A stretch of DNA of 64,000 nucleotides from Escherichia phage RB16, in sequence record NC_014467.1, one strand, 5' to 3'. Below the pieces are notes generated by a model, which saw nothing but the letters and a program-made list of their open reading frames with translations, was not told the DNA's origin and did no database searches. Both the position numbers and the translations under genes were made by a program. Shown one piece after another: positions 4,966 to 40,582 of this stretch (its first letter is position 1; each line of letters opens with the position of its first letter).

Positions 4966-5627
4966 TGACACAATTTATTTCAAAGACAAGGGAGGGGGCG
5001 AAAGTCCCTTCCCGTGAAGCAGACTTTTTGCAATATGAAATGGGTACTAAAGACCCTCTTATCGGTGGTAAACGTACTATCGGTGGTGCAAACGTCGATC
5101 AGCTTCGTAAAGGGGTAGATTATCCCAACGTGCAATCAGCAATCGATGACCTGTATACTCTGTCTCAACAGATCCCGATCAACGGGGTTATCATGATGAC
5201 AGAAGACAGTCCTCCGACCGCTGTTCAGCAGGTAGAGACTATAACTTTTGATGGTACTGTACAAAACACAGATCCAGACCAGACAAAAGCAACAATTCAT
5301 GTTTATGGATTCCCGTTCGTGTTCGATAACACAACGAACGCATCAACCGTATGCGAAACAGTCTACAACAAGTTTACTGAATTTGTCAATGACGAAAAAT
5401 ATTTCGATCTGGTAACTCGCAAGGGCTTGAACGGTGAAATTCTGGAAGTTCGGTTTATTGATTGTGTTCCGCATCCGGTAACAAATACTACTGAAAACGG
5501 AATATCTATGGTAGGAACAATCGATGTACAGGCACGATCTGGTTACGGTACGTGGTCGAAACTGGGTGAGGTGGATCTTGCTGTAACTCCGGCAGTTCCA
5601 ATTTTCTACTTTAAACGTATTGCGTAA
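4965..5627 (+). CDS. gp11: Baseplate wedge protein gp11 (short tail fibre attachment)
   Basis: 220 aa against T4 gp11 at 219 aa; synteny; start overlaps the gp10 stop. Confidence 0.8.
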   Translation: MTQFISKTREGAKVPSREADFLQYEMGTKDPLIGGKRTIGGANVDQLRKGVDYPNVQSAIDDLYTLSQQIPINGVIMMTEDSPPTAVQQVETITFDGTVQNTDPDQTKATIHVYGFPFVFDNTTNASTVCETVYNKFTEFVNDEKYFDLVTRKGLNGEILEVRFIDCVPHPVTNTTENGISMVGTIDVQARSGYGTWSKLGEVDLAVTPAVPIFYFKRIA

Positions 5628-5636
5628 GGATAACCA

Positions 5637-7028
5637 ATGAGTAACAACACAATTAACCACGTAAGCGATGCGTCCGTTTACGTGACTTTTGATCCGGCAG
5701 GTACGCAATGGCCCTCGACTTTCGTCAACGTACAGCAAGCATTAGCCTCTATAGGCCCGTGGGCGCGTACTGATGTTGGTTTGCCTAACGCGGCTCCTGG
5801 TATGCGTGGTATTGCTGCTATTGCTACCGAGGCGATGATTGACGCAGGGACAGACAACGAAACGATCGTTACTCCTGCATTGCTGGCATATCGTTTACAA
5901 AATCCTCATGCGTCACAAACCGTTTGGGGATATACCAAATACGCAACTGATGCGGAAGCGGTTGATGTCGCAAACGATCTGGTTTCATTAACTCCGCGTT
6001 CGATCAATGTGGTTTTCAATACCAGACACGCATCAGAAACCGTGTGGGGTTCTTCTAAACTGTCAACGACAGCACAGGCAACAGCGGGTACTGATGATAC
6101 AACCTCAATGACACCATTGAAGGTAAAACAAGCAATCTCTGCTCTGGTTCCGGTACAATCCAACGCAACAGAAAGCGCGTTCGGTTTGGTTCAGTTGGCT
6201 ACGGTTTCAGAAGTCCGCGCGGGTACTATTCGCGACGGTTTCGCAATTTCACCGTATACGTTTATTCGTCTGAATGCAACAGAAAGCGATCTGGGTATTG
6301 TTCGCCTAGCAAGTCAGGCAGAAGTAAACGCAGGAACTGATGATACCAAAGCCGTTACCCCGTTAAAACTGGCTAACCTTAAAGGCTCCGGTGGTTCTTT
6401 CGGTTTGGTTAAATTATCAACAGAAGTAAACGCAGGGCTGGCTAACACTGCTCTTTCTGCGGGTGCTAACGTAGTACCGAGCAACCGTGACAGCGCTATC
6501 ACTGGTGGTGCATTGTATCAGGGTTCAGTTGCTGCTGCTAATAAATACCAGACACATAGCGATATCGAAGCATCGTTACCGATTGGCTGTATGATGATGG
6601 CTGCATTTAACTCCGATTACGGAAACCTGTGTATTGCCAACGGTCGCGGGATGTATACATACGAATACCCAGAACTGTTTGCACGTATAGGCTATACGTA
6701 TGGCGGTAGTGGTAACATCTTTAATCTTCCTGATATGCGCGGCGTAGTTGCTCGCGGATTTGATGCGGGACGTGGTTTAGACCCAGGTCGTGGATTTGGT
6801 ACATACCAGCATCACGAAGTACAGTCTCATGAGCATCCATTGCAGATGATCTATCAGTCTGGTGGTAACTTACCATCATGGCAGTGTGTTTATGAACTGC
6901 GTACTGCTGAGAAGAATGACCAGAAATTATACTGGCCTGATCCATCACTCAGTAAAGCAATGGCTGTAGGCGGTAACGAAACGCGAATGAAGAACCTTGC
7001 GGTCAACTATGTAATTCGAGTACGATAA
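5637..7028 (+). CDS. gp12: Short tail fibre protein gp12-like
   Basis: 463 aa; repeated tail-fibre motif (A.TD.G..RLA/LAT..EV.AGTDDT) shared with the gp34-like protein in this window; His-rich C-terminal segment HHEVQSHEH; position between gp11 and wac. Confidence 0.7.
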   Translation: MSNNTINHVSDASVYVTFDPAGTQWPSTFVNVQQALASIGPWARTDVGLPNAAPGMRGIAAIATEAMIDAGTDNETIVTPALLAYRLQNPHASQTVWGYTKYATDAEAVDVANDLVSLTPRSINVVFNTRHASETVWGSSKLSTTAQATAGTDDTTSMTPLKVKQAISALVPVQSNATESAFGLVQLATVSEVRAGTIRDGFAISPYTFIRLNATESDLGIVRLASQAEVNAGTDDTKAVTPLKLANLKGSGGSFGLVKLSTEVNAGLANTALSAGANVVPSNRDSAITGGALYQGSVAAANKYQTHSDIEASLPIGCMMMAAFNSDYGNLCIANGRGMYTYEYPELFARIGYTYGGSGNIFNLPDMRGVVARGFDAGRGLDPGRGFGTYQHHEVQSHEHPLQMIYQSGGNLPSWQCVYELRTAEKNDQKLYWPDPSLSKAMAVGGNETRMKNLAVNYVIRVR

Positions 7029-7040
7029 AGGGGTTAATCC

Positions 7041-9329
7041 ATGATTTCAAAACTTAACCCGTTACCAAAGATCCCGTTTGTTGATGGTGTCCCTTCGGAC
7101 ACCACACAAACCCCGATCAACTGGATAATTAACGGCGAAACTCTCGATGGTGCTAAAACCAAAGTCACTAACGAGGGTTCTTTAAACAGGTGCGGTGTTC
7201 TGGTACAAAAGAACGCGGTGCAATTAGAAACCAACACCATTACACAGACTGCAAAAATCAACGAAGTTATCGATCAGGTTAACCTCATTAGTGAAAACCT
7301 CGCGGCTATTTCTGATGAAAGCGTGATTGACAAACTGGATCAGGTTGTTGCTGATGTAGAAGTGTTGAAAGTTGATATGACTGCGGTTCAAGGTTCTACT
7401 GCAAGCAATACCCTGAAAATCCAGGATCTCGATAAAGAGATCGGGACGTGGGACGCTTCAACAGATCCTAAACACCGTACCATTCGAAAAGATATTATTT
7501 TCCTGAAAGGGGAAATGGGTGCGTACCCTGGGTTTAACGAAAACGGCGACGTAGATCCGACATCAACGGGTTCCGGCATGAAATACAAAATCATGACGAA
7601 CGCGCAAGCGATTTCGATTCATGAAGGACGTATTACGCGCCTTGAAGATGATTGGGCTAACTCAGACGTAGGTCATTTAACTGATGAAGTAACCGATCTG
7701 CGTAACGAAATGGGGCCAAAACATTTAGCGACGTTTGAATCTGTATATGTTCGTCTAAACATTATCGGTACTGAGATCACTGGTATCAATTCCGAACTAA
7801 CCAGCATCAACCAATATATCGGTCGTACTGGCACGGGTGGAACTGGTAGTATTTCTGCGCGTATGACTACAGCAGAATCGAATATCGCAACCCTGCAAAC
7901 ACAGATGAATGATTCTGCTACTGGTGTATTACCTCGCGTAATTTCTTTGGAAAATGCTGTCGGTAACTCTCAGATCCCTGGTAGTATTCGTTACGACATC
8001 AGCGCAATCAAACGTGACATCGGTGATATCAACATGATCGTCGGTGAATCAAGCGATGATGGTCTTCGTGGGGAAATGGCTCAGGTTATGACCGATATCG
8101 GTACTGATTCACAGCCTACGAGCATCAAAGGCCGTTTGCTGAACGTTGAGAACACCCAACGTGACGATCACCAGAAACTGATTGACGTTGAATCTGTTGT
8201 TGGTAATACTTCAAGTGGACTCGTTGCGGCTAATATCGCGATGGGTAAAGCTGTTTACGGTGATGCAACGAGTTCTGATCCATTCCTGAAAGACGGTATT
8301 CAGAAAACAGCGCGTGACAGTAAAGCGGCTATCGGTGTAAACACAACCGGATCGGAAACAGGGATCTATAAACTGATTTCAGATTTGACTGCTCGTGTTG
8401 CTGCACTTGAAAGCGGTACTGGTGGCGAACTTGAACAACGTGTTTCTGATTTGGAAACCAATAAAGCATCGCATCAGGACGTTGCAAACGCATTGGTTCC
8501 GTATATTACCGAAGCGGAAGCAGATGTTAAGTACGAACCGAAGAAAATTCCGTTATCGTTTACGCAAAACCTTGTTAGGCGTGGCGATTATATCGAAGGT
8601 GATGACATTTCTTTCATGGTTACGGTAACAGGTGGTAAACTGCCTTATGTCTACCAGTGGAAGAAAGGAACCGCTGATGTAGGTACTAACGCATCGAGCA
8701 TTCTGATCCAAAGCATTACCTCTGCCGACGCTGGCGTGTATAAAGTTGTTGTTACCGATGCAGACAACACCGTAATTACTTCTGACGAAGTGACGGTTGC
8801 TGTTTATCCGGTTCCTCAGTTTGATACTAACCTGGCTGACAAATCGGTGGTTGACGGTGATCCTCTGACTCTGGAAGTTGTATACAGCGGTGGTAAACCT
8901 CCGTACACTTACGAATGGTTCAAAGATAACTCTGTTATCTCTGGGGAAACATCAGCAACATTTACCAAATCTGCTGTTACAAGCGCTGATGCTGGTGAAT
9001 ACTATGTTTCTGTAACTGACGCAATGAACAACCAAAACGATTCAGTGAAAGCAACCGTGACTGTAACACCTCGTCCGGCTCTTGCATTCACTACGGATCT
9101 GAGTGCTACTAAATCATACAGCACAGGTGCTAACATGGATCTTGCTGTTGTCGTGACTGGTGGTAAAACACCATATACGTATAAATGGTTTAAAGACACT
9201 GCGGAAATTTCCGGTCAGACAGGCGCAAGCCTTACCACTGTAGCAGAAGATGGGGTGTATAAAGTCGAAGTGACGGATGCACTAACGACTAAAATAACAT
9301 CAACTGAATGCACGGTAACTGTGGCATAA
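7041..9329 (+). CDS. wac: Fibritin (wac) homolog with a C-terminal extension of three Ig-like repeats
   Basis: N-terminus LP.IPFVDG...INWIINGE resembles the T4 fibritin N-terminus; long coiled-coil-like middle; three ~90-aa repeats GGK(L/P)PY.Y.W(K/F)K...Y.V.VTDA at the C-terminus. Confidence 0.75.
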   Translation: MISKLNPLPKIPFVDGVPSDTTQTPINWIINGETLDGAKTKVTNEGSLNRCGVLVQKNAVQLETNTITQTAKINEVIDQVNLISENLAAISDESVIDKLDQVVADVEVLKVDMTAVQGSTASNTLKIQDLDKEIGTWDASTDPKHRTIRKDIIFLKGEMGAYPGFNENGDVDPTSTGSGMKYKIMTNAQAISIHEGRITRLEDDWANSDVGHLTDEVTDLRNEMGPKHLATFESVYVRLNIIGTEITGINSELTSINQYIGRTGTGGTGSISARMTTAESNIATLQTQMNDSATGVLPRVISLENAVGNSQIPGSIRYDISAIKRDIGDINMIVGESSDDGLRGEMAQVMTDIGTDSQPTSIKGRLLNVENTQRDDHQKLIDVESVVGNTSSGLVAANIAMGKAVYGDATSSDPFLKDGIQKTARDSKAAIGVNTTGSETGIYKLISDLTARVAALESGTGGELEQRVSDLETNKASHQDVANALVPYITEAEADVKYEPKKIPLSFTQNLVRRGDYIEGDDISFMVTVTGGKLPYVYQWKKGTADVGTNASSILIQSITSADAGVYKVVVTDADNTVITSDEVTVAVYPVPQFDTNLADKSVVDGDPLTLEVVYSGGKPPYTYEWFKDNSVISGETSATFTKSAVTSADAGEYYVSVTDAMNNQNDSVKATVTVTPRPALAFTTDLSATKSYSTGANMDLAVVVTGGKTPYTYKWFKDTAEISGQTGASLTTVAEDGVYKVEVTDALTTKITSTECTVTVA

Positions 9330-32200: not shown

Positions 32201-33106
32201 ATGAAAATGCAATTGAATCACTTCATCAAATCCGCTGCTGCTGGCGACCAATCAAAATACAAATCAAACCGCAATCATAGTCTGGATAAAGATTTTGCCG
32301 ACTTCCTGGGGTTCAAACGTTGGCATACTCCGGTTATGCGTCCAGACTGCGATCCCAAATACGATTACCCGCGTTGGGGCATGAGTCGTCACGCTGTCGT
32401 TAAAAACATCCGTGTAATGTCGTTCCGCAATCTGTATGGTAGCTGCATCATCGAAATTGCAAACGAGCGAGACATCATTCTTCCTAATGGATGGAAACTC
32501 GCTGATTTAGTAAAAACCCTGATCCAGATACGTAAAGAATATAAAAACGGGTACATCCGTTCTATGGAATCATTGGGGGCTTATAGCGGTGAAGACTATC
32601 GCGAATGGCAATCAGTTGCGAAATACCTGATCAACAGTGTGTTCGGTATTATTTGTAGCAAAGGATCTGCAATCAATCTTGGTGGTCATGAGGTGATTGC
32701 TCGTGCTCGTGAAAAGGTTGCCGAAGCTATAAACCAGATCATTGCTTCCGGTGGTACGGTTCTTCATGTGAACGTAGATGAAATCGCGTATGTTGGTAAA
32801 CAGGTTGATATTCCTAACGTTCATCACGAACGATTCAACAACGCCGTTTTCACTGGCTTCCGTGGTGCTATGTGGGGAGACCATGCCATTATAAGCGGCC
32901 CTGTTCCTACTCTTCGTTTTGATATGGATGATTGGGAACCTAGCAGACATTATCGCCTTTCTGATGAAGAACAACGCGCCTCTGCTCTGCGTATGATTGA
33001 TAGCCGTCGTGATCGATTGGTAAAAGAACTCAATGAGTACATGAACAAAACGAAAGAAGAAGTTTTACGTGAACTTAACGTTGACTGTGATTCCATTTCG
33101 TTGTAA
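32201..33106 (+). CDS. Hypothetical protein
   Basis: 301 aa ORF with SD; no motif I can assign. Confidence 0.4.
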   Translation: MKMQLNHFIKSAAAGDQSKYKSNRNHSLDKDFADFLGFKRWHTPVMRPDCDPKYDYPRWGMSRHAVVKNIRVMSFRNLYGSCIIEIANERDIILPNGWKLADLVKTLIQIRKEYKNGYIRSMESLGAYSGEDYREWQSVAKYLINSVFGIICSKGSAINLGGHEVIARAREKVAEAINQIIASGGTVLHVNVDEIAYVGKQVDIPNVHHERFNNAVFTGFRGAMWGDHAIISGPVPTLRFDMDDWEPSRHYRLSDEEQRASALRMIDSRRDRLVKELNEYMNKTKEEVLRELNVDCDSISL

Positions 33107-33134
33107 GCTGTAGTCTCTAAACAAGGAGATACAC

Positions 33135-33452
33135 ATGAAAACTATTCACTGTCGCGAAGAACACACTGTTTATTACCACGGATCGTGTACTGCTGCTGGG
33201 ATTGAAAGCATGTTGTTACCTCCTTGTGCGTCTGAAACTCTGTCAGAGAAAGGCAGAAAGAAAAACTTAGACCGTGTTTTCTTCACCGCTGATATAGGTT
33301 TAGCCCGTATCTATGCTGGAAGGGCTGCACGGTCAATAGGTGGCGATCCGGTACTGTATCGGGTTGTGTGTCCGGTTGACGCGGTATGTATGAACGACGA
33401 CAAAGGCGCGAGTGTTTATCATGCTGCATGGGCTTTTTGTGAGGAAATATGA
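33135..33452 (+). CDS. Hypothetical protein
   Basis: 105 aa ORF with GGAGA SD. Confidence 0.3.
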   Translation: MKTIHCREEHTVYYHGSCTAAGIESMLLPPCASETLSEKGRKKNLDRVFFTADIGLARIYAGRAARSIGGDPVLYRVVCPVDAVCMNDDKGASVYHAAWAFCEEI

Positions 33453-33616
33453 ATGATCGTGTTTTAGCAATTCTCGTTTTCCTTCTGGGGTATCGGGTTG
33501 AAGTATTGGGTTGGTATATGGCGCTTAATGGTGATCTGACCGCAATTTGGATGGTTTCATTAGGCATTCTGTTTACTTTCTTATCGTGTGATATCGACAA
33601 TAGGGCTACCCAATGA
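33449..33616 (+). CDS. Small hydrophobic protein (about 55 aa, two predicted membrane-spanning stretches); not in the ORF track
   Basis: ATG at 33449 overlaps the upstream stop (ATGA) and its stop overlaps the next gene's ATG at 33613 (ATGA); translation MNDRVLAILVFLLGYRVEVLGWYMALNGDLTAIWMVSLGILFTFLSCDIDNRATQ. Confidence 0.4.
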   Translation: MNDRVLAILVFLLGYRVEVLGWYMALNGDLTAIWMVSLGILFTFLSCDIDNRATQ

Positions 33617-33939
33617 AACTATTTTATGTAGTGTATAGCGGTATGGTTAATGTTGATGTTCCCTTGCTTTCCGTCGAAACGATTGATACACTCGAAGGGA
33701 AGATCGGAAAACGTTTTAAAACTACCGTATCAGAAATCAGTACGGTGTTTGTTGACCATCCGTCAGATCTGGAAAATTTAATCAACACTCTCGATGATTT
33801 GCAAATCCCGTTTGCTGAAATTTATCATCACCAATCGGGGCTGTATTTGATTGTGACATTTGTTCTAAAAAATGTTGACAGCAGAAATCCAGAAGTGCTA
33901 GATTTTATCCGTAACATTGATTCAAATAAAGGAAAGTGA
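33613..33939 (+). CDS. Hypothetical protein
   Basis: 108 aa ORF, translationally coupled to its neighbours. Confidence 0.3.
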   Translation: MKLFYVVYSGMVNVDVPLLSVETIDTLEGKIGKRFKTTVSEISTVFVDHPSDLENLINTLDDLQIPFAEIYHHQSGLYLIVTFVLKNVDSRNPEVLDFIRNIDSNKGK

Positions 33940-34280
33940 TTATGAAAATCGTTCAGCGTAATATCAGCGAAGTTAGCCAGGAAGAAAAAGTTCAGATCCA
34001 TTTCAAATTCAATGATCTGAAACGTGGTTATGCAGAAATTGCCCGTGTTCATAAGTTGGACAATGGCGACATTTATATGATTGTCCAGGAAATTGAACGA
34101 ATCCGCGCTTTCCGTGCCGAAAACCCGAAAGTAAAACGTGTTCTTCGTCGTGTGTATGTGAATAAACATCGTAAAGCTGCGAAACCAGTTAAACCAAAAC
34201 GCGAACCGCGTCCAGACAACAAACGCAAAGCAATTAACGGCGCTATGGCGTTGGCTTTCCAGGAAGCAGGTTTAGTGTAA
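33936..34280 (+). CDS. Hypothetical protein with basic C-terminal tail
   Basis: 114 aa; C-terminus K/R/P-rich (KPVKPKREPRPDNKRK). Confidence 0.35.
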   Translation: MIMKIVQRNISEVSQEEKVQIHFKFNDLKRGYAEIARVHKLDNGDIYMIVQEIERIRAFRAENPKVKRVLRRVYVNKHRKAAKPVKPKREPRPDNKRKAINGAMALAFQEAGLV

Positions 34281-34289
34281 GGGGTTAAC

Positions 34290-34817
34290 ATGAGTCGTAG
34301 AAATATGGAACGCTGGAATACTATTGTAACCAGCAGTATCAAACCTGTTGCGCCAGCGTTCAAGGAAGTTGTAGAAGAAACTCCGGTTAAAACACAGACT
34401 GTTGTATCTTTGAGTGAAGATGATTTAGAGCACCGTCGCCGTGCGAATCAAATTGAATTCGATCTGCGTATTGCTCGTTCATACAACAGCAAAAACGATG
34501 ATGCGCGTAGTCGTAACCTGCAATTTGCTCTTACGTTGGGCGATTGGACTGTGTTAATGAGTCAAACTACTTGTGCGTATTCCGGCAAGGTGTTTAGCAC
34601 TCGCGGAGACAGCCCGAACTCTCGAACGATGGAACGTATTAACCCTATGTTGGGCTATACCCCAGAAAACACGATCGCAGTGACAAAAGCCGCTAACAGT
34701 GAAAAATCATCACTCGACGCGTTCATGAAGGGTTCTGTAATCCTTCCAGAAGTAAAACTGAAACTGTTACGCAAAGCCGCGTACCAAATTGAAAAACAAC
34801 TGAAAATTAAAGGTTAA
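34290..34817 (+). CDS. Hypothetical protein with HNH-like arrangement (uncertain)
   Basis: CAYSGK ... ERINP ... N...V...N.EK spacing resembles an HNH His-Me finger, but with Glu where the first His would be. Confidence 0.3.
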   Translation: MSRRNMERWNTIVTSSIKPVAPAFKEVVEETPVKTQTVVSLSEDDLEHRRRANQIEFDLRIARSYNSKNDDARSRNLQFALTLGDWTVLMSQTTCAYSGKVFSTRGDSPNSRTMERINPMLGYTPENTIAVTKAANSEKSSLDAFMKGSVILPEVKLKLLRKAAYQIEKQLKIKG

Positions 34818-34821
34818 TATT

Positions 34822-35865
34822 ATGTTTGTGAAATATTCTTCTCTTACGAACCATTATGAAGGTAAATTCATCAATGGTGTGATCATGAATGGTTTGACGG
34901 GCGGTGTGTGGGTTGCTCGTGAAAAGATCCACGGTGCAAACTTTAGTCTGATGACTTCTGACGGAGAAAAGGTTATTCCGGCAAAACGTAGCGGTGAAAT
35001 CCTCCCTACTGAACAGTTTTACGGTTGTGAACCTGTTGTTGCTCGATATGCCCCAGCAATCCGTAAACTGTGGGATGCCCTCAATACTGCACAGCAGGTT
35101 AGCGGGATTTACGATGCGCCGCTGGTAATTCAGGTATACGGAGAATTCGCAGGGCGTGGTGTTCAGAAAGATGTTGACTACGGTGAAAAAGATTTCTACG
35201 TGTTTGATATCCGTGTGAATGGTAATTTCCTACCTGATAACGTTGTTGCGACCTATGCCGTTGCTGTTGGTTTGAAAATGGCCCCGCTGTTAGCATACGG
35301 CACTTTTGACGAGATCCGAGCACTTCCGATCACGTTTGATTCAGTGGTTAACCTGGCGAACTCCGGCGCGATTCCTGCACATAACGGGGTTGAACCTGAA
35401 TTCAAAAACTTCATGACGCTGAAAGATGGTGAAGGTGAGAACATCGCAGAAGGTTTCGTAATGAAGCCCGTACACCCTGCTTTCATGCCGAACGGTGACC
35501 GTGTTGCAATCAAATGCAAAACGACGAAGTTTAGCGAGAAGAAAAACAAACAAGCGAACCGCTTCAATGCTCCGGCTGAACTGTCGGAAAATGATAAAGT
35601 TAAACTGGATGTGTTCACCTGCTACCTGACAGAAAACCGCGTTAAAAACGTCCTGTCTAAAATTGACAGCGCGAACCTTACCGCGAAAGACTTCGGTCGC
35701 GTCATGGGGCTGACTGTACAGGATGCTCTTGAAGAAATCGAACGCAACTACGGACCGTTTATCGAACAGTTTGAAAACCCGACGCTGGCGAAGAAAACTT
35801 TCACCAACGAAGCCTCAAGCCTGATTCGTACAAACTGGGGCGCAATCCTGAACAATGAATTTTAA
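34822..35865 (+). CDS. rnlB: RNA ligase 2 (Rnl2)
   Basis: 347 aa; matches T4 Rnl2 as recalled: MF.KYSSL.NHY..KFI, LTGG.WVAREKIHG.NFSL (lysine nucleophile motif KIHG), VDYGEKDFYVFDI, NGNRVAIKCK..KFSEKK, DFGRVMGLTVQD.LEE. Confidence 0.9.
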   Translation: MFVKYSSLTNHYEGKFINGVIMNGLTGGVWVAREKIHGANFSLMTSDGEKVIPAKRSGEILPTEQFYGCEPVVARYAPAIRKLWDALNTAQQVSGIYDAPLVIQVYGEFAGRGVQKDVDYGEKDFYVFDIRVNGNFLPDNVVATYAVAVGLKMAPLLAYGTFDEIRALPITFDSVVNLANSGAIPAHNGVEPEFKNFMTLKDGEGENIAEGFVMKPVHPAFMPNGDRVAIKCKTTKFSEKKNKQANRFNAPAELSENDKVKLDVFTCYLTENRVKNVLSKIDSANLTAKDFGRVMGLTVQDALEEIERNYGPFIEQFENPTLAKKTFTNEASSLIRTNWGAILNNEF

Positions 35866-36439
35866 AACTGTTCTCGAAAACGCAAAAACGGCTACCCTGA
35901 TCGGTAGCCGTGAACCCCCCGAACGTATAGCAAACATCGCTATCAAGATCGGACGTGCATTAAGTGATCGAGGTATTTTAGCTTATTCTGGTGGTGCTCC
36001 TGGAATGGATAGCCATTTCTTGTTTGACTACGCACCAGAAAGACGGCGCATAATTCTCCCTGAAAACGGTTTTAACGGGCTTTGCTCGAATGGTATGGAT
36101 ATTATCGACTATAACGAGTTAGACACGTACAAAGCCGCTGATGAAGCGAGAAAGGTATCTGGGAACTTCGATTACCAAAACGAATGGACACAAAGGCGTT
36201 ATGCGAGAAATGCAGTTCAGATATTGCGCGAAAATTTAGACAGCCCGACTGACTTCGTGTTATTTTGGGCTATCGAAAAGGATTTTTGTGTCAAGGGCGG
36301 TACGGCTATCGCAACACGCCTTGCACGATTATACGGTGTTCCCAGTTTCAACCTGTGGAAAGAAAACGTATTGAATGATGTTTGTGATACTTTGGGGATT
36401 AATATCAAACCTCCAACTTTGGATTTTCTCTGGTGCTAA
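35855..36439 (+). CDS. DprA/Smf-like Rossmann (SLOG superfamily) protein
   Basis: 194 aa; TATLIGSREPP....IG..LSDRGILAYSGGAPGMD resembles the DprA/SLOG nucleotide-binding core (.GSR....G.....A..G....SG.A.G.D); overlaps the rnlB stop by 11 nt. Confidence 0.45.
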   Translation: MNFKTVLENAKTATLIGSREPPERIANIAIKIGRALSDRGILAYSGGAPGMDSHFLFDYAPERRRIILPENGFNGLCSNGMDIIDYNELDTYKAADEARKVSGNFDYQNEWTQRRYARNAVQILRENLDSPTDFVLFWAIEKDFCVKGGTAIATRLARLYGVPSFNLWKENVLNDVCDTLGINIKPPTLDFLWC

Positions 36440-36460
36440 CTCCCGAACAATCACGTAATT

Positions 36461-36934
36461 ATGAACGCCTCTCAGTTGAAGAGGCACTTAAAAAGGTTAA
36501 GAACAATGGTAGAGATCAACGGAATCGGGGTGAACCCGAACGCGGGAATGACAATTTCAAAGAACGATCCTCGTTGCGGTCGTAGTCCTACGCTGGCAGA
36601 ACGTGCGCGTAAGCTGGTAGAGGAAACAAACGGCAAGATGTTTGAAACATGCCGTGAAGAAATCACCCGCAATATTCTAAGTTTCCCAACAAAACAATCA
36701 TACACGTTTGATATGAAACGTTTTGTTGGTACGACGATGGGGCAAGAATGCACCAAACGTGCGTTTGATATGATCGGGGAATGGCTGACCGAAGAAGGTT
36801 TAACCTATGAAACCCAGGCAGGAAGAACGTCTGTCGCAATACAATACGCAATGAGTAGTCGCCGTATTTCAGGAAGCACTACCGTACCTGAAAGAACTGG
36901 GTATAGTGAATACACGTATTTCATCACCTGGTAA
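36461..36934 (+). CDS. Hypothetical protein
   Basis: ORF; the ATG at 36506 (MVEINGIG) has a better SD than the track start. Confidence 0.35.
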   Translation: MNASQLKRHLKRLRTMVEINGIGVNPNAGMTISKNDPRCGRSPTLAERARKLVEETNGKMFETCREEITRNILSFPTKQSYTFDMKRFVGTTMGQECTKRAFDMIGEWLTEEGLTYETQAGRTSVAIQYAMSSRRISGSTTVPERTGYSEYTYFITW

Positions 36935-36952
36935 AAAAGATTGAAATAGTTG

Positions 36953-36980
36953 TTGACGGGAGTTCTGATTATGATAAGAT
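36953..36980 (+). promoter_or_regulatory. Sigma70-like early promoter (TTGACG-N16-TAAGAT)
   Basis: Hexamers at 36953-36958 and 36975-36980 upstream of the 37022 gene; same -10 hexamer as the 45645 promoter. Confidence 0.35.
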
Positions 36981-37021
36981 AGCTCCCGTAGACAAGACAA
37001 CTAACCCAGAAGGAAAACATC

Positions 37022-37291
37022 ATGGAAATCAAATTAATCCCTACTTGCGCTGGTTACTGCTTGGCACTGAACGGTGTAGCAAACAACGGCAAAGGCTTAC
37101 GGGCTAACGTTGAAGCAATGCTGAATGAACTGGCGTTGCGGAGTGAACCTGGGATGCAGTATGAGTATGATGACGTTGCAACCAGCGTTAAAATCTCTAA
37201 TCTGGTAATGGATGGTGTTGACTGTGCGGGTTGGTGGGATTGCTACATCGACTATGCAGACAATCGGGTTTTCTTACTGACCAGCAACTAA
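37022..37291 (+). CDS. Hypothetical protein
   Basis: 89 aa ORF downstream of a promoter-like element. Confidence 0.35.
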   Translation: MEIKLIPTCAGYCLALNGVANNGKGLRANVEAMLNELALRSEPGMQYEYDDVATSVKISNLVMDGVDCAGWWDCYIDYADNRVFLLTSN

Positions 37292-37299
37292 GGAATGTT

Positions 37300-37710
37300 A
37301 TGAAAGATTATATTTCAGAAGCAGAAGCGCTTGAAGAAAGCGGTTTTCAAGTCACCATTGACGATGAAGAAGATGGTGGCTATGATGGCGGTGTTATGTG
37401 GGGGCTTAAACGTCCACAACGTAAAACTCCTGTTCAATATTCTGATGGTTCGGTAAGATACGAAACGGTTGTTAAAGAAGTAAACGGGCGCGTCATTACG
37501 TCCGAACGGCAGAAGGACATTAAACAGTTGTATGATGTCGCAAAAGCCGCTAAAGTAGGAACCGAGATTGTTTGTCCGGTGTGCAAAGAGAAACACAAGA
37601 AGACGACCTATCATAAGGTGTTCTGCTCTAATGGCAAAAAATCCAGGAAAGACTGTAAGAGTAAATACTGGAACACGATTCATCCTGAACGTTTGGATCG
37701 TATCTTTTAA
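37300..37710 (+). CDS. Hypothetical protein with C-terminal Cys cluster
   Basis: ATG at 37300 with AAGGAA SD (track start 37231 overlaps the upstream gene); CPVCKEKHKK...CSNGKKSRKDC. Confidence 0.35.
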   Translation: MKDYISEAEALEESGFQVTIDDEEDGGYDGGVMWGLKRPQRKTPVQYSDGSVRYETVVKEVNGRVITSERQKDIKQLYDVAKAAKVGTEIVCPVCKEKHKKTTYHKVFCSNGKKSRKDCKSKYWNTIHPERLDRIF

Positions 37711-37732
37711 TCAAAACGTGGAGTACGTTTAA

Positions 37733-39166
37733 ATGAAAACTTTTAATGAACTGAATAGCATCATCACCTCAACCGATTCCTACAAAGTGTCCCACTGGAT
37801 GCAGTATCCGAAAGGCACTGACGCAGCGATGTTCTATATTGAATCTCGCGGTGGTAAATTTGATGAAGTCGTAACCGCTGGCGTTAACTACGTTGCGCGG
37901 GTTCTCGCTGAACCAATTACCATGAAGCAGGTTGAGTTAGCGCGGGTACTTTACCGTAAACACTTCGGAAAAGAGATCTTTAACTACGAAGGGTGGAAAA
38001 AGATTGCTGAACTGGGTTATACCCCTGTAATTTTCCGTGCGATCCCAGAAGGTACGGTTGTTCCGGTGAAAAATGCCGTTGCGACTGTGTACGCCGAAAA
38101 CGAGTTCTCGTGGCTGGCTGGGTGGCTGGAAACAATGACGATTCGCGGTATCTGGTATCCGTCATCTGTAGCAACGCTATCGCGTGAGTGTAAAAAGGTT
38201 CTGGCACACTACCTTGATATGACTTCTGACCTTACTGGTGAAGCATATAACATCACACTGGGTACACGTCTGCATGATTTTGGGGCGCGGGGCGCGACCT
38301 CTGCTGAATCTGCTGGCATTGGTGGGCTGGCACACCTTTATAACTTCATCGGCACTGATACCGTAGAAGGGATGATTATGGCAATCAGCCTCTTTGCGGA
38401 TTATCAAACACTGTTTGATGAAGTTGAAAACGTAGAAGTGGCTGGGGTTTCCATCCCTGCTCGTGAGCATTCAACTACGATTTCCTACGGTAAAGAAAAC
38501 GAAGACGAAGCATATAAAAACAGCATTGAAATGTTCGGTGATGGGTTCTACGCTTGCGTATACGATTCATGGGACTACAAAGCCGCTGTTGACCGGATCG
38601 ATAGTTATAAAGAGAAAATCATTGCATCTGGCGGTGTGTTGGTAGTGCGTCCAGACTCAGGGGATATGATCGACAACATCATGTACACCTTGCGCAAACT
38701 GGGGCAAATCTTCGGATATACTGTCAACTCCAAAGGGTACAAAGTTCTTCATAACTCTGTTCGTATCATCCAGGGTGACGAGATCCACGGGCCTGAAACA
38801 ATCAACCGTGTATTAAGCTGGATGGAAGCGAACAAATGGTCGAGCGAAAACATTGCGTTCGGTATGGGTGGCGGTTTGCTGCAAGAAGTTACCCGCGATA
38901 CCCAGAAATATGCTGAAAAACTTTGCGCTATCCGTATCAACGGTGTGTGGAAAGGCGTTTACAAATGCCCGAAAGGTTCGGAATGGAAAAAGAGCAAGAA
39001 AGGTTTATTGATGACCATCACTAACGGGATGGAATTCAAGACAATCGATTCTCTCGAAGAATCTATTCCTGTTGGGTGGTTTGATGCGATGGTAACTTAT
39101 TACGACAATGGTTATCTGAACAAAACCAACACTTTAGGGGGAATTCGTGAGCGTAGCCGGATTTAA
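37733..39166 (+). CDS. nadV: Nicotinamide phosphoribosyltransferase (NAMPT / NadV)
   Basis: 477 aa; N-terminal signature TDSYKVSHW and GARGATS...GIGG..H typical of the NAMPT family; this length fits NadV. Confidence 0.85.
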   Translation: MKTFNELNSIITSTDSYKVSHWMQYPKGTDAAMFYIESRGGKFDEVVTAGVNYVARVLAEPITMKQVELARVLYRKHFGKEIFNYEGWKKIAELGYTPVIFRAIPEGTVVPVKNAVATVYAENEFSWLAGWLETMTIRGIWYPSSVATLSRECKKVLAHYLDMTSDLTGEAYNITLGTRLHDFGARGATSAESAGIGGLAHLYNFIGTDTVEGMIMAISLFADYQTLFDEVENVEVAGVSIPAREHSTTISYGKENEDEAYKNSIEMFGDGFYACVYDSWDYKAAVDRIDSYKEKIIASGGVLVVRPDSGDMIDNIMYTLRKLGQIFGYTVNSKGYKVLHNSVRIIQGDEIHGPETINRVLSWMEANKWSSENIAFGMGGGLLQEVTRDTQKYAEKLCAIRINGVWKGVYKCPKGSEWKKSKKGLLMTITNGMEFKTIDSLEESIPVGWFDAMVTYYDNGYLNKTNTLGGIRERSRI

Positions 39167-39455
39167 TATCCGCGCCAACGATAACGGATCTGTAATCTTC
39201 TATAACAATCAGCCCCTTGTTGCTCGCAAGGGGCTTTTTTGTAAGTTAGTTGGGTATGGGTTCAAGTTGGAACAGGTGGATAACGCAACACTAAAAGAGA
39301 TCGTGCGTATAGCCTATCTCCTGAAAGATAAGAAAGATGAACATAAGGCGGTTGCAATGCTGGAGAAATTGGGAGAAAATCATTGCTTCATCATAAATCG
39401 TGGATACAAATACGATACAATCGCTTTATTTGAAAAAGGGCTTAGTGAACTATGA
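39147..39455 (+). CDS. Hypothetical protein
   Basis: 102 aa ORF (GTG start) between nadV and dam; ATGA overlap with dam. Confidence 0.3.
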   Translation: MSVAGFNIRANDNGSVIFYNNQPLVARKGLFCKLVGYGFKLEQVDNATLKEIVRIAYLLKDKKDEHKAVAMLEKLGENHCFIINRGYKYDTIALFEKGLSEL

Positions 39456-40303
39456 ATTATTTGGGTGTAATACCTTACACGGGCAACAAGCAGAATTTAT
39501 TGCCTAAGTTGTTTGAACTCTTTCCAGATCGCAGACATTATCATCGATTCGTTGATTGTTTTTGTGGTGGATTGAGTGTGTCGCTAAACGTCCCCAAACC
39601 CGTTCTAAGCAACGATTACGATAAGACGCTGATTGATATGTATGAGCGTCTTAAAACGCTTCCTGACCTGTCTCCGGTGCGAGAATTGATTGCATCAAAG
39701 GGGCTGGGGAAAGACAAGAAAGAAGAGTATTTGAAATTCCGTGATGAATACAACCAGAACAAAGATCCGTTATGGCTCTATGTCCTGATCCTGCATTCAT
39801 TCAGCAACGTTAACCGGACAAACGACAAAGGCGATTTTAACGCTGCTGTAGGAAAACGAACCCTCAACTTTATGACAGAAAAACGTTTCGAACATTTCAA
39901 AAAGAATGTGACAGGAATTGAATTTCGTTCTGGTTCATACTCTGATATTGAAATCAACGATAACGATTTTGTTTATTGCGATCCTCCGTATCTAATCACT
40001 GATGCGGTGTATAACAAATTCTGGAACGCAGATCGCGAACGCGAGTTATATGCTTTCCTTGACTCCCTGCATGAGCGGGGCATTTGGTTTGGTTTGTCTA
40101 ACGTGACTCACCATGCCGGAAAACAAAACGATATCCTGATTGAATGGATGAAGAAATACACCGTTCATAACCTGGATAAAAAGTATCTGTTAGGGCAACA
40201 CACAGAATCCTATGAGCAAAACAAAACACAGGAGGTGTACGTGTGCAACTACCAGAAACGAGAAGTAAATACATTCCCACAAACACTAGATGATTTAATG
40301 TAG
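39452..40303 (+). CDS. dam: DNA adenine methyltransferase (Dam)
   Basis: 283 aa; matches T4 Dam as recalled: YTGNKQ.LLP.L...FP, RFVD.FCGGLSVSLN, DFVY.DPPYLIT...YNKFW, RGI.FGLSNV..H.GK.N. Confidence 0.9.
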   Translation: MNYLGVIPYTGNKQNLLPKLFELFPDRRHYHRFVDCFCGGLSVSLNVPKPVLSNDYDKTLIDMYERLKTLPDLSPVRELIASKGLGKDKKEEYLKFRDEYNQNKDPLWLYVLILHSFSNVNRTNDKGDFNAAVGKRTLNFMTEKRFEHFKKNVTGIEFRSGSYSDIEINDNDFVYCDPPYLITDAVYNKFWNADRERELYAFLDSLHERGIWFGLSNVTHHAGKQNDILIEWMKKYTVHNLDKKYLLGQHTESYEQNKTQEVYVCNYQKREVNTFPQTLDDLM

Positions 40304-40309
40304 GTTAAC

Positions 40310-40582
40310 ATGTTTAAAATTTATGGCTATATCCCTTCCGTATACAATTGCGCTCCGTGCCTGAACTCGAAACGACTGTTGGACGCAAAGAAACATGAAT
40401 ATGAATTCTTATCTGTTGCTGATTCCAAAGGCGAAGACGGCAAACCGATCCTGAATGAATCTGTGATTGATGAACTCGAAGCCCTGACGGGTACGCGCAA
40501 AATGTCAATGCCTCAGATTTTCCACGATGGGAAACACATTGGCGGGTTCGACCAACTTCGTGAGTATGTCCGCACCCTGTGA
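40310..40582 (+). CDS. nrdC: Glutaredoxin/thioredoxin NrdC
   Basis: 90 aa; matches T4 NrdC as recalled: MFK.YGY, C..C redox motif, MPQ.F..G.HIGGFDQLREY. Confidence 0.8.
   Translation: MFKIYGYIPSVYNCAPCLNSKRLLDAKKHEYEFLSVADSKGEDGKPILNESVIDELEALTGTRKMSMPQIFHDGKHIGGFDQLREYVRTL

Follow-up and report, generated by a model that had tools for sequence, protein, structure and literature searches.

Within a 64,000-nucleotide stretch of the genome of Escherichia phage RB16 (NC_014467.1), hereafter the window, a gene for a 194-residue protein starts just before the stop codon of rnlB, the gene for RNA ligase 2. This protein is a member of a known and annotated phage family, PHROG 768, whose sister group is the Rossmann-fold (RF) domain shared by DprA and ShosA: the protein is a homologue of that domain, not a DprA. 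We tentatively read it as a non-catalytic binder of single-stranded nucleic acid, which may act as an accessory in repair, recombination or counter-defence. An earlier inspection of the DNA letters (the sequence-only reading) had recognized in it the nucleotide-binding core of the SLOG (SMF/DprA-LOG) superfamily, and had suggested that it binds or degrades a host immune signalling nucleotide or an NAD-derived product. The resemblance is borne out by the fold model, the glycine-rich loops and profile matches to the DprA clade; the signal-nucleotide idea ranks second among the readings weighed below, the evidence leaning somewhat away from it.

The fold was predicted with AlphaFold2 from a 47-sequence alignment. 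The model (predicted local distance difference test, pLDDT, 95.4; predicted template modelling score, pTM, 0.90) consists of one alpha/beta domain and presents the Rossmannoid features of SLOG proteins: a three-layer alpha/beta arrangement, a five-stranded parallel sheet, and top structural matches that are themselves SLOG members. When Foldseek was run against the PDB, the first nine matches were chains of DprA from H. pylori (HpDprA; E 2e-6), followed by ShosA (1e-4). Against BFVD, it returned family members in many phages with template modelling (TM) scores of 0.7-0.8, then YspA/DUF2493 SLOGs of phages and giant viruses. The structural comparison that the sequence-only reading had proposed as a check therefore returns a SLOG fold, with HpDprA on top, and for a predicted model we regard this assignment as solid.

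Curated profiles place the protein near DprA and outside it. The sole Pfam match is DNA_processg_A, at 22.8 bits, below the gathering cut-off of 29.6 and limited to residues 6-54; the sole NCBIfam match is dprA (TIGR00732), at 17.8 bits against a cut-off of 191; and the sole PADLOC matches are ShosA (1.4e-4) and PsyrA (1.5e-3). The family profile, searched against PDB sequences, finds HpDprA at 6e-6. Profile-profile comparison by hhalign with an alignment of five DprA-type RF domains (E. coli Smf, 3MAJ, 3UQZ, ShosA 8ZVA and HpDprA 4LJK) gives a probability of 92.9% and E 3.7e-7 over 151 columns, corresponding to residues 6-170 of the RB16 protein. On the combined evidence of fold, hidden Markov model (HMM) and profile-profile comparison, the nearest kin are thus the RF domains of DprA and ShosA, not LOG or ThsA. 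Membership in DprA proper was rejected because the protein falls below the curated Pfam and TIGR00732 cut-offs and has neither a SAM nor a winged-helix domain: its 194 residues form a single domain in the model, with no SAM or DML1/winged-helix domain and no further Pfam match.

The gene and its conserved motifs are located as follows:

35855-36439, plus strand: SLOG gene, encoding a single-domain protein of 194 residues (ATG at 35855, TAA at 36437-36439); PHROG 768, 'DprA-like', T4-like-phage subfamily.
35903-35911, plus strand: G17-S18-R19, the loop that follows strand 1; its invariant R19 aligns with the GTR arginine (HpDprA R52, ShosA R139).
35987-36010, plus strand: S45-G-G-A-P-G-M-D52, a glycine-rich loop that follows strand 2 and corresponds to SGxAxGxD in DprA.
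36206-36220, plus strand: R118-N119-x-x-Q122 helix motif; R118 is invariant and aligns with the RN(R) arginine (HpDprA R143, ShosA R234).
36296-36319, plus strand: G148-G149-T150...A153...R155; GGT is the SLOG 'GGxGT'-type loop after strand 4, and R155 aligns with HpDprA R170 and ShosA R261.

Both motifs quoted in the sequence-only reading are present, the first as I16-G17-S18-R19 (35900-35911) and the second at S45 to D52. G17-S18-R19, S45-GGAPG-x-D52 and G148-G149-T150 are invariant or nearly so across the family, and hhalign pairs IGSR with GS/TR, SGGAPGxD with SGLAxGID, R118-N119 with RN(R), and GGT...R155 with SGS/T...R. The HpDprA and ShosA arginines listed above contact single-stranded DNA (ssDNA) and are required for binding in electrophoretic mobility shift assays (PMC12961424). 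They fall exactly on R19, R118 and R155, the offset between paper and PDB numbering being inferred by counting. When 268 non-redundant sequences are aligned to the family HMM, R19 and R118 never vary, and about 75% of the sequences have R or K at position 155. The counterpart of the LOG signature PGGxGTxxE is K-G-G-T-A-I-A, in which the position of the catalytic Glu is Ala153; Ala occupies this position in 96% of 237 distant and 97% of 31 close sequences, and LOG-type catalysis was rejected on this ground. A family-specific insert lies between strand 3 and the RN helix, and reads PWxGFN...HPxW in most members and PENGFN in the RB16 protein.

The second line of evidence comes from the gene's position behind rnlB, where the overlap noted by the sequence-only reading holds and the upstream open reading frame (ORF) is RNA ligase 2:

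34822-35865, plus strand: rnlB (RNA ligase 2), the upstream partner; Pfam RNA_ligase 3e-19 and T4_Rnl2_C 2e-14, PHROG 548 2e-112.
35855-35865, plus strand: start/stop overlap of 11 nt, ATGAATTTTAA; the rnlB TAA at 35863-35865 lies 8 nt past the SLOG ATG.

No Shine-Dalgarno-like sequence was seen at normal spacing before the SLOG ATG, so the gene is likely initiated by translational coupling, that is, by re-initiation of ribosomes that have just finished rnlB.

To place this arrangement in a wider context, ORFs were called in 80 related IMG/VR loci and their neighbours clustered; 78 loci had a callable SLOG ORF, and these fall into 37 lineages with SLOG identities below 60% between lineages. 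RNA ligase 2 is the sole recurrent immediate neighbour besides the T4 head-region synteny (gp23/gp24, hoc, inh and the prohead protease); any other conserved partner was rejected, as clustering of the 78 loci gave only T4-like synteny and scattered helicases. Of the 78 loci, 18 have rnlB no more than 6 kb from the SLOG gene, and in 15 of these, which represent four to five T4-like lineages, it is directly upstream, with stop and start overlapping or nearly abutting. RB43-like phages show an 11-nt overlap at the junction, Jiaodavirus-like and related phages one of 1, 4 or 22 nt; in one lineage, 9 nt separate the two genes. With identities between lineages of about 43% for RnlB and 37% for the SLOG protein, the two proteins have co-diverged. 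The location of the pair differs between genera: in RB43-like phages it is flanked by srd and nadV and is remote from the head genes, and in others it adjoins gene 24. The pair has thus been kept through rearrangement. Krischvirus-type phages retain the SLOG gene without an adjacent rnlB. We regard rnlB-SLOG as an old and apparently translationally coupled pair in several T4-like lineages, which is a modest new observation. In a Klebsiella phage lineage (locus L020), a 445-nt insert at 5480-5926 splits the junction, and the matching GenBank record annotates an HNH endonuclease beside the DprA-like gene; this suggests insertion of a homing endonuclease between the coupled genes.

Outside T4-like phages, neighbours are varied and are mostly nucleic-acid enzymes. 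The homologue of Acinetobacter phage Acj61 (locus L013, 4016-4612) directly follows the gene 41 helicase; that of KPP10 is accompanied by an ATP-dependent DNA ligase and a helicase; other neighbours include Dda-like and SNF2 helicases, DNA polymerase A and SSB, and one plasmid shows RdgC and DUF1071. One phage lineage has its SLOG gene among the nucleotide-metabolism genes Tmk, dUTPase, RNR and DCD. In Acj61, the homologue is also followed, 3.5 kb downstream, by a gene pair (7146-8519), one member ribose-phosphate pyrophosphokinase-like and the other NAMPT-like, which resembles the NARP1 NAD-reconstitution operon.

The sequence-only reading had also drawn attention to nadV:

37733-39166: nadV (NAMPT); Pfam NAPRTase 3e-38 and NAMPT_N 1e-24.

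This gene does lie 1.3 kb beyond the SLOG gene on the downstream side, and three or four small ORFs separate the two, but the adjacency is not conserved: nadV/NAPRTase is a neighbour in only one or two of the 37 lineages. A functional link was rejected on that basis and on the tblastn result given below.

That the SLOG ORF is a real gene, far beyond a chance reading frame, follows from its PHROG match, the number of its homologues and its mode of evolution. Its full-length match to PHROG 768 has an E value of 1.7e-58 and pairs residues 10-189 with profile positions 3-188 of 191. A word-indexed search yielded 61 homologues, whereas an exhaustive search with the family profile reached 6,839 cluster representatives, 3,081 of them at E<=1e-30. 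The ratio of non-synonymous to synonymous substitution rates (dN/dS) against orthologues is 0.07-0.10, indicating strong purifying selection. By tblastn, 1,098 of 50,697 phage records (about 2%) carry a homologue, and metagenomic clusters with one number in the thousands; only 35 of 72,556 plasmid records do, so this is essentially a phage family, and a reading in terms of plasmid biology was rejected. The window, from an RB43/RB16-like Pseudotevenvirus, is 97.5% identical to Buttiauxella phage GuL6 and 96% to RB43; the existing annotations of RB43, IME-CF2 and leE include this gene, and an IMG/VR contig encodes a protein 100% identical to the RB16 one.

Two of these annotated copies are interrupted. 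RB43 (NC_007023) has a 1-nt deletion at about codon 34 of the SLOG gene (L095 7040-7640), and IME-CF2 (NC_029013) has independently lost one nucleotide of codon 19, at a site within the 3' arm of a strong hairpin described below (L096 1340-1940). Because of these deletions, both RefSeq records annotate only a 144-residue C-terminal fragment starting at Met51. The frameshifts are either a genuine inactivation of a dispensable gene or sequencing errors. RB16-like phages, with the gene intact, and RB43, with the gene frameshifted, offer a natural comparison.

Because the protein has a DprA-clade pocket with its contact arginines, has no LOG Glu, and is coupled to rnlB in a family whose neighbourhoods are rich in nucleic-acid enzymes, we infer a single-strand-binding accessory, and hold this as a tentative preference. 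The family's median isoelectric point (pI) of 8.6 also counts for nucleic-acid binding, as do the fusions to RecJ, a DarG/TARG1-type macrodomain and NADAR described below. A nucleotide unit of the single strand would be held in a pocket lined by the GSR, SGGAxGxD and GGT loops and the RN helix, with R19, R118 and R155 used as DprA and ShosA use their equivalents for ssDNA, and most likely with no LOG-type enzyme activity. In T4-like phages, where it is inherited and apparently translated together with RNA ligase 2, the protein would serve as a dispensable accessory, possibly working with RnlB; the independent deletions in RB43 and IME-CF2 count for dispensability. Its tasks might be to hold or protect single-stranded or nicked substrates, or to present damaged strands to partner enzymes.

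Several observations weigh against this preference, the most serious of them being the divergence of the T4-like copies. The 268 aligned sequences are bimodal: about 210 'canonical' members carry G15, R44, E/Q56, W70, H102-P103 and W105, and 58 do not, 43 of the latter having none of the six rim residues. All sampled T4-like phage copies belong to the non-canonical group. They have replaced G15, R44, E/Q56, W70, H102 and W105, which in the RB16 protein are L15, Y44, L56, E70, S102 and F105, while the core loops are unchanged. Judging from the secondary-structure map, each of the six rim positions belongs either to the lid insert or to the C-terminal end of a strand, and together they would form the ligand face. 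The T4-like subfamily may accordingly perform the canonical rim task differently or not at all, and because its pocket rim is remodelled, the RB16 protein may not share the function of the bulk of the family. In addition, the clade of the RB16 protein is acidic, with a pI of 5.5 against the family median given above. It is chiefly the remodelled rim and this acidity that keep confidence in any mechanism no higher than moderate. The conserved pocket residues, moreover, are the generic SLOG nucleotide-binding set and would suit a free nucleotide as well as one within a strand. The missing SAM and winged-helix domains and the failed DprA cut-offs also count against the preference, as do the commonest recognizable fusion partners (NADAR, DUF4326 and Macro), which can also be read as handlers of soluble ADP-ribose (ADPr) derivatives (PMC9503650). 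An AlphaFold2 prediction of RnlB and the SLOG protein joined by a linker, based on only nine paired sequences, gave a pTM of 0.39 with a poor RnlB fold, a result that speaks neither for nor against a complex. Finally, no experimental work on the PHROG 768 family was found in the literature searched. The existence of T4-like copies as a subfamily with a remodelled pocket rim is itself a modest new observation.

The fusion partners deserve separate attention, as they keep an ADP-ribose link alive. Among 49 longer, multidomain homologues examined for architecture, NADAR is fused in six, DUF4326 in five or six and DUF7831 in two; one homologue is fused to RecJ (DHH-DHHA1-OB), and one to a DarG/TARG1-type macrodomain (PADLOC DarG 3e-20; best PDB sequences 5M3I and 5M31, then TARG1). 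Two of the six NADAR-bearing homologues, the very long metagenomic proteins P0062 (1,488 residues) and P0063 (1,475 residues), combine the SLOG domain with a YAcAr SLOG, an LDcluster4 SLOG and a C-terminal NADAR, and in two others of about 1,460-1,480 residues (P0103 and P0178) the SLOG domain stands without another recognizable family. From fusions, Iyer et al. (2022) read viral SLOG domains as processors of soluble ADPr-derived immune signals (PMC9503650); the signal-nucleotide idea of the sequence-only reading had therefore already been proposed. Later work has shown that ADP-ribose attached to bases of ssDNA is removed by DarG-type macrodomains and by NADARs, phage gp30.3 among them, the NADARs acting on ADPr-guanine, and that T4-like phages use orphan NADARs against DarTG1 (PMC11543638, PMC11125620, PMC11825919). 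As these partners act on bases in ssDNA, the fusions are equally readable as a single-strand-binding module joined to a DNA de-ADP-ribosylase.

These architectures bear on two rival explanations. The one closest to the sequence-only reading sees a counter-defence sponge or hydrolase that binds or cleaves an immune signal or NAD-derived product, such as a cyclic ADP-ribose (cADPR) isomer, an ADPr derivative or a cyclic nucleotide. The NADAR, DUF4326 and Macro fusions and the published proposal speak for it, as do the position of nadV, the NARP1-like pair in Acj61, and the acidic pI and remodelled rim, which fit a pocket for small molecules no less well than a groove for DNA. A distant SLOG, ORF83 of phage PhiDruSM1, adds an anti-AVAST-III deletion phenotype and a predicted AMP binding. 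We nevertheless consider this explanation, the main rival, less likely than single-strand binding: the protein is nearer DprA/ShosA than ThsA/LOG at every level tested, the LOG Glu is replaced by Ala, gene neighbours over the 37 lineages are mainly nucleic-acid enzymes, and the NADAR and DarG-type partners act on ADP-ribosylated DNA rather than on soluble signals. nadV adjacency is confined to one or two lineages, and NADAR, Macro and Nudix are absent from the 25 commonest of 51 neighbour families listed. A tblastn search with the NADAR, Macro and DUF4326 domains of the fused homologues found nothing in the 64-kb window, which is a weak test, and in the literature searched the family was not found reported as an anti-Thoeris or anti-CBASS factor. 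The same partners could instead point to a helper or enzyme of base de-ADP-ribosylation, directed against DarT- or CmdT-type toxins: the SLOG protein would recognize a modified nucleotide in ssDNA or RNA and then bring in a glycohydrolase or remove the adduct itself, leaving restoration of the strand to RnlB or other ligases. The DarG/TARG1-type fusion, the recurrence of NADAR fusions, the known activity of NADARs on guanine in ssDNA and their use against DarTG1, and the retained DprA-type arginines all fit. However, the RB16 protein is stand-alone, with no NADAR or Macro gene detected in the window or among conserved neighbours; the fusions are a small minority, all within the canonical subfamily and not the T4-like one; and no catalytic residue can be named. 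This makes the de-ADP-ribosylation role quite unlikely.

Two further explanations start from catalysis and from toxin-antitoxin biology. A LOG-like phosphoribohydrolase, cleaving the N-glycosidic bond of AMP or of a (modified) nucleotide as predicted in silico for ORF83, might be suspected from the R-N and GGT motifs, which resemble the LOG AMP site, and from the lineage in which the gene lies among Tmk, dUTPase, RNR and DCD. It is very improbable given the nearly invariant Ala153 in place of the Glu of PGGxGTxxE, and given that the T4-like subfamily also lacks E56 and H102, the possible substitutes; ORF83 itself belongs to a different SLOG family (no match in hmmsearch, 1% in hhalign). The phage protein might otherwise stand in for ShosA or PsyrA, preventing abortive infection by ShosTA or PsyrTA. 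ShosA and PsyrA are its only PADLOC matches, ShosA is a structural neighbour, and ShosA neutralizes ShosT without binding it, through ssDNA and RecA (PMC12961424). Such mimicry is scarcely credible here, as the PADLOC matches are confined to the N-terminal 47 residues, where the shared SLOG motifs lie; the SAM domain and the C-terminal helix, on both of which ShosA depends for its stability, are missing; and the family is far more widespread than ShosTA would account for.

A bolder reading would make RnlB and the SLOG protein a two-component repair or counter-defence module of T4-like phages, in which the remodelled pocket recognizes a damaged or adducted nucleotide at a break and the substrate is passed to RNA ligase 2. 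Candidate ends would be ADP-ribosylated, adenylylated or otherwise modified. We regard this reading as distinctly improbable as it stands, but if true, it would give Rnl2 a defined substrate and a partner. To our knowledge, the in vivo role of Rnl2 has been unknown since 2002, and the coupling of the two genes gives a concrete handle on two orphan functions. The stakes also differ between readings: databases label the family a 'recombination mediator', whereas the comparative-genomics literature sees an 'ADPr-signal processor', and the two predict different ligands. An ordinary ssDNA binder would be a modest result; a true binder of immune signals or adducts would add a widespread counter-defence family.

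Further features were seen in and around the gene. A perfect 9-bp hairpin at 35888-35911, ACGGCTACC-CTGATC-GGTAGCCGT, lies within codons 12-19 of the SLOG gene and spans the GSR motif. The RNA fold of 35840-35930 that includes it has a free energy of -24.3 kcal/mol (z -4.5), and the site was also flagged as a terminator-like element on the minus strand. Its 24 nt are identical in orthologues L015, L016 and L021, even though L021 has a synonymous divergence (dS) of about 1.9 elsewhere, and it is not preserved in L020 and L022. The hairpin may have a regulatory function, as RNA or as DNA, superimposed on its coding role. Across 33000-40500, promoter and terminator counts were not above those of shuffled sequence, so operon boundaries cannot be set from them. 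Upstream of rnlB, an srd-like ORF at 34290-34817 matches PHROG 4592 'decoy of host sigma70' at 4e-76 and has no Pfam match; its residues 43-143 also match HNH endonuclease and endonuclease VII PHROGs (E 4e-22 to 5e-6). Directly downstream of the SLOG gene, the ORF at 36461-36934 matches PHROG 7671 (1e-67), which has no function in the catalogue; in RB43 this stretch is annotated as two short hypotheticals, ORF251w and ORF252w.

Among known systems, the RF domain of DprA/Smf (PF02481; H. pylori 4LJK/4LJR, R. palustris 3MAJ, S. pneumoniae 3UQZ) is the closest relative, homologous across its length and sharing the contact arginines. DprA binds ssDNA, dimerizes and loads RecA. It is a cellular competence and recombination mediator, whereas the RB16 protein is the product of a phage accessory gene, matches below the Pfam and TIGR cut-offs, lacks the SAM and DML1/winged-helix domains, and belongs to a family with an insert between strand 3 and the RN helix. 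The ShosA/PsyrA antitoxins (8ZVA, 9VZO) differ in another way: ShosA has a SAM domain, a C-terminal dimerization helix and an adjacent phosphoribosyltransferase toxin, none of which accompanies the RB16 protein. Within PHROG 768, 'DprA-like DNA recombination-mediator protein' (RB43 ORF250w, KPP10 gp141, Acj61p073 and others), it is a full-length member, but the name is a homology label only, and the RB16 protein falls in the T4-like subfamily that lacks the six rim residues.

The remaining systems are more distant. PhiDruSM1 ORF83, matched to Seurat gp80 through the deletion primers in the preprint supplement, is likewise a stand-alone phage SLOG and follows the same motif logic (GGR / GDADGVD / RN / GGAGT, in 130 residues). 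Described as 'Smf/DprA' by HHpred, it lowers plating on AVAST type III hosts when deleted (Ojima et al., preprint), and EVADES predicts that it binds AMP; it is the only phage SLOG with a deletion phenotype that we found in the literature searched. As ORF83 is a YAcAr/DUF2493 SLOG and thus of a different family (the RB16 protein has no PF10686 match, and the PHROG 768 family HMM finds nothing in Seurat), transfer of its anti-AVAST-III phenotype was rejected. LOG phosphoribohydrolases have a catalytic Glu where the RB16 protein has A153, and are more distant than DprA in every comparison. The same holds for the SLOG domain of ThsA, a 3'cADPR sensor with a fused or operonic SIR2/TIR-type effector: the RB16 protein stands alone, with no effector neighbour, and is closer to DprA throughout.

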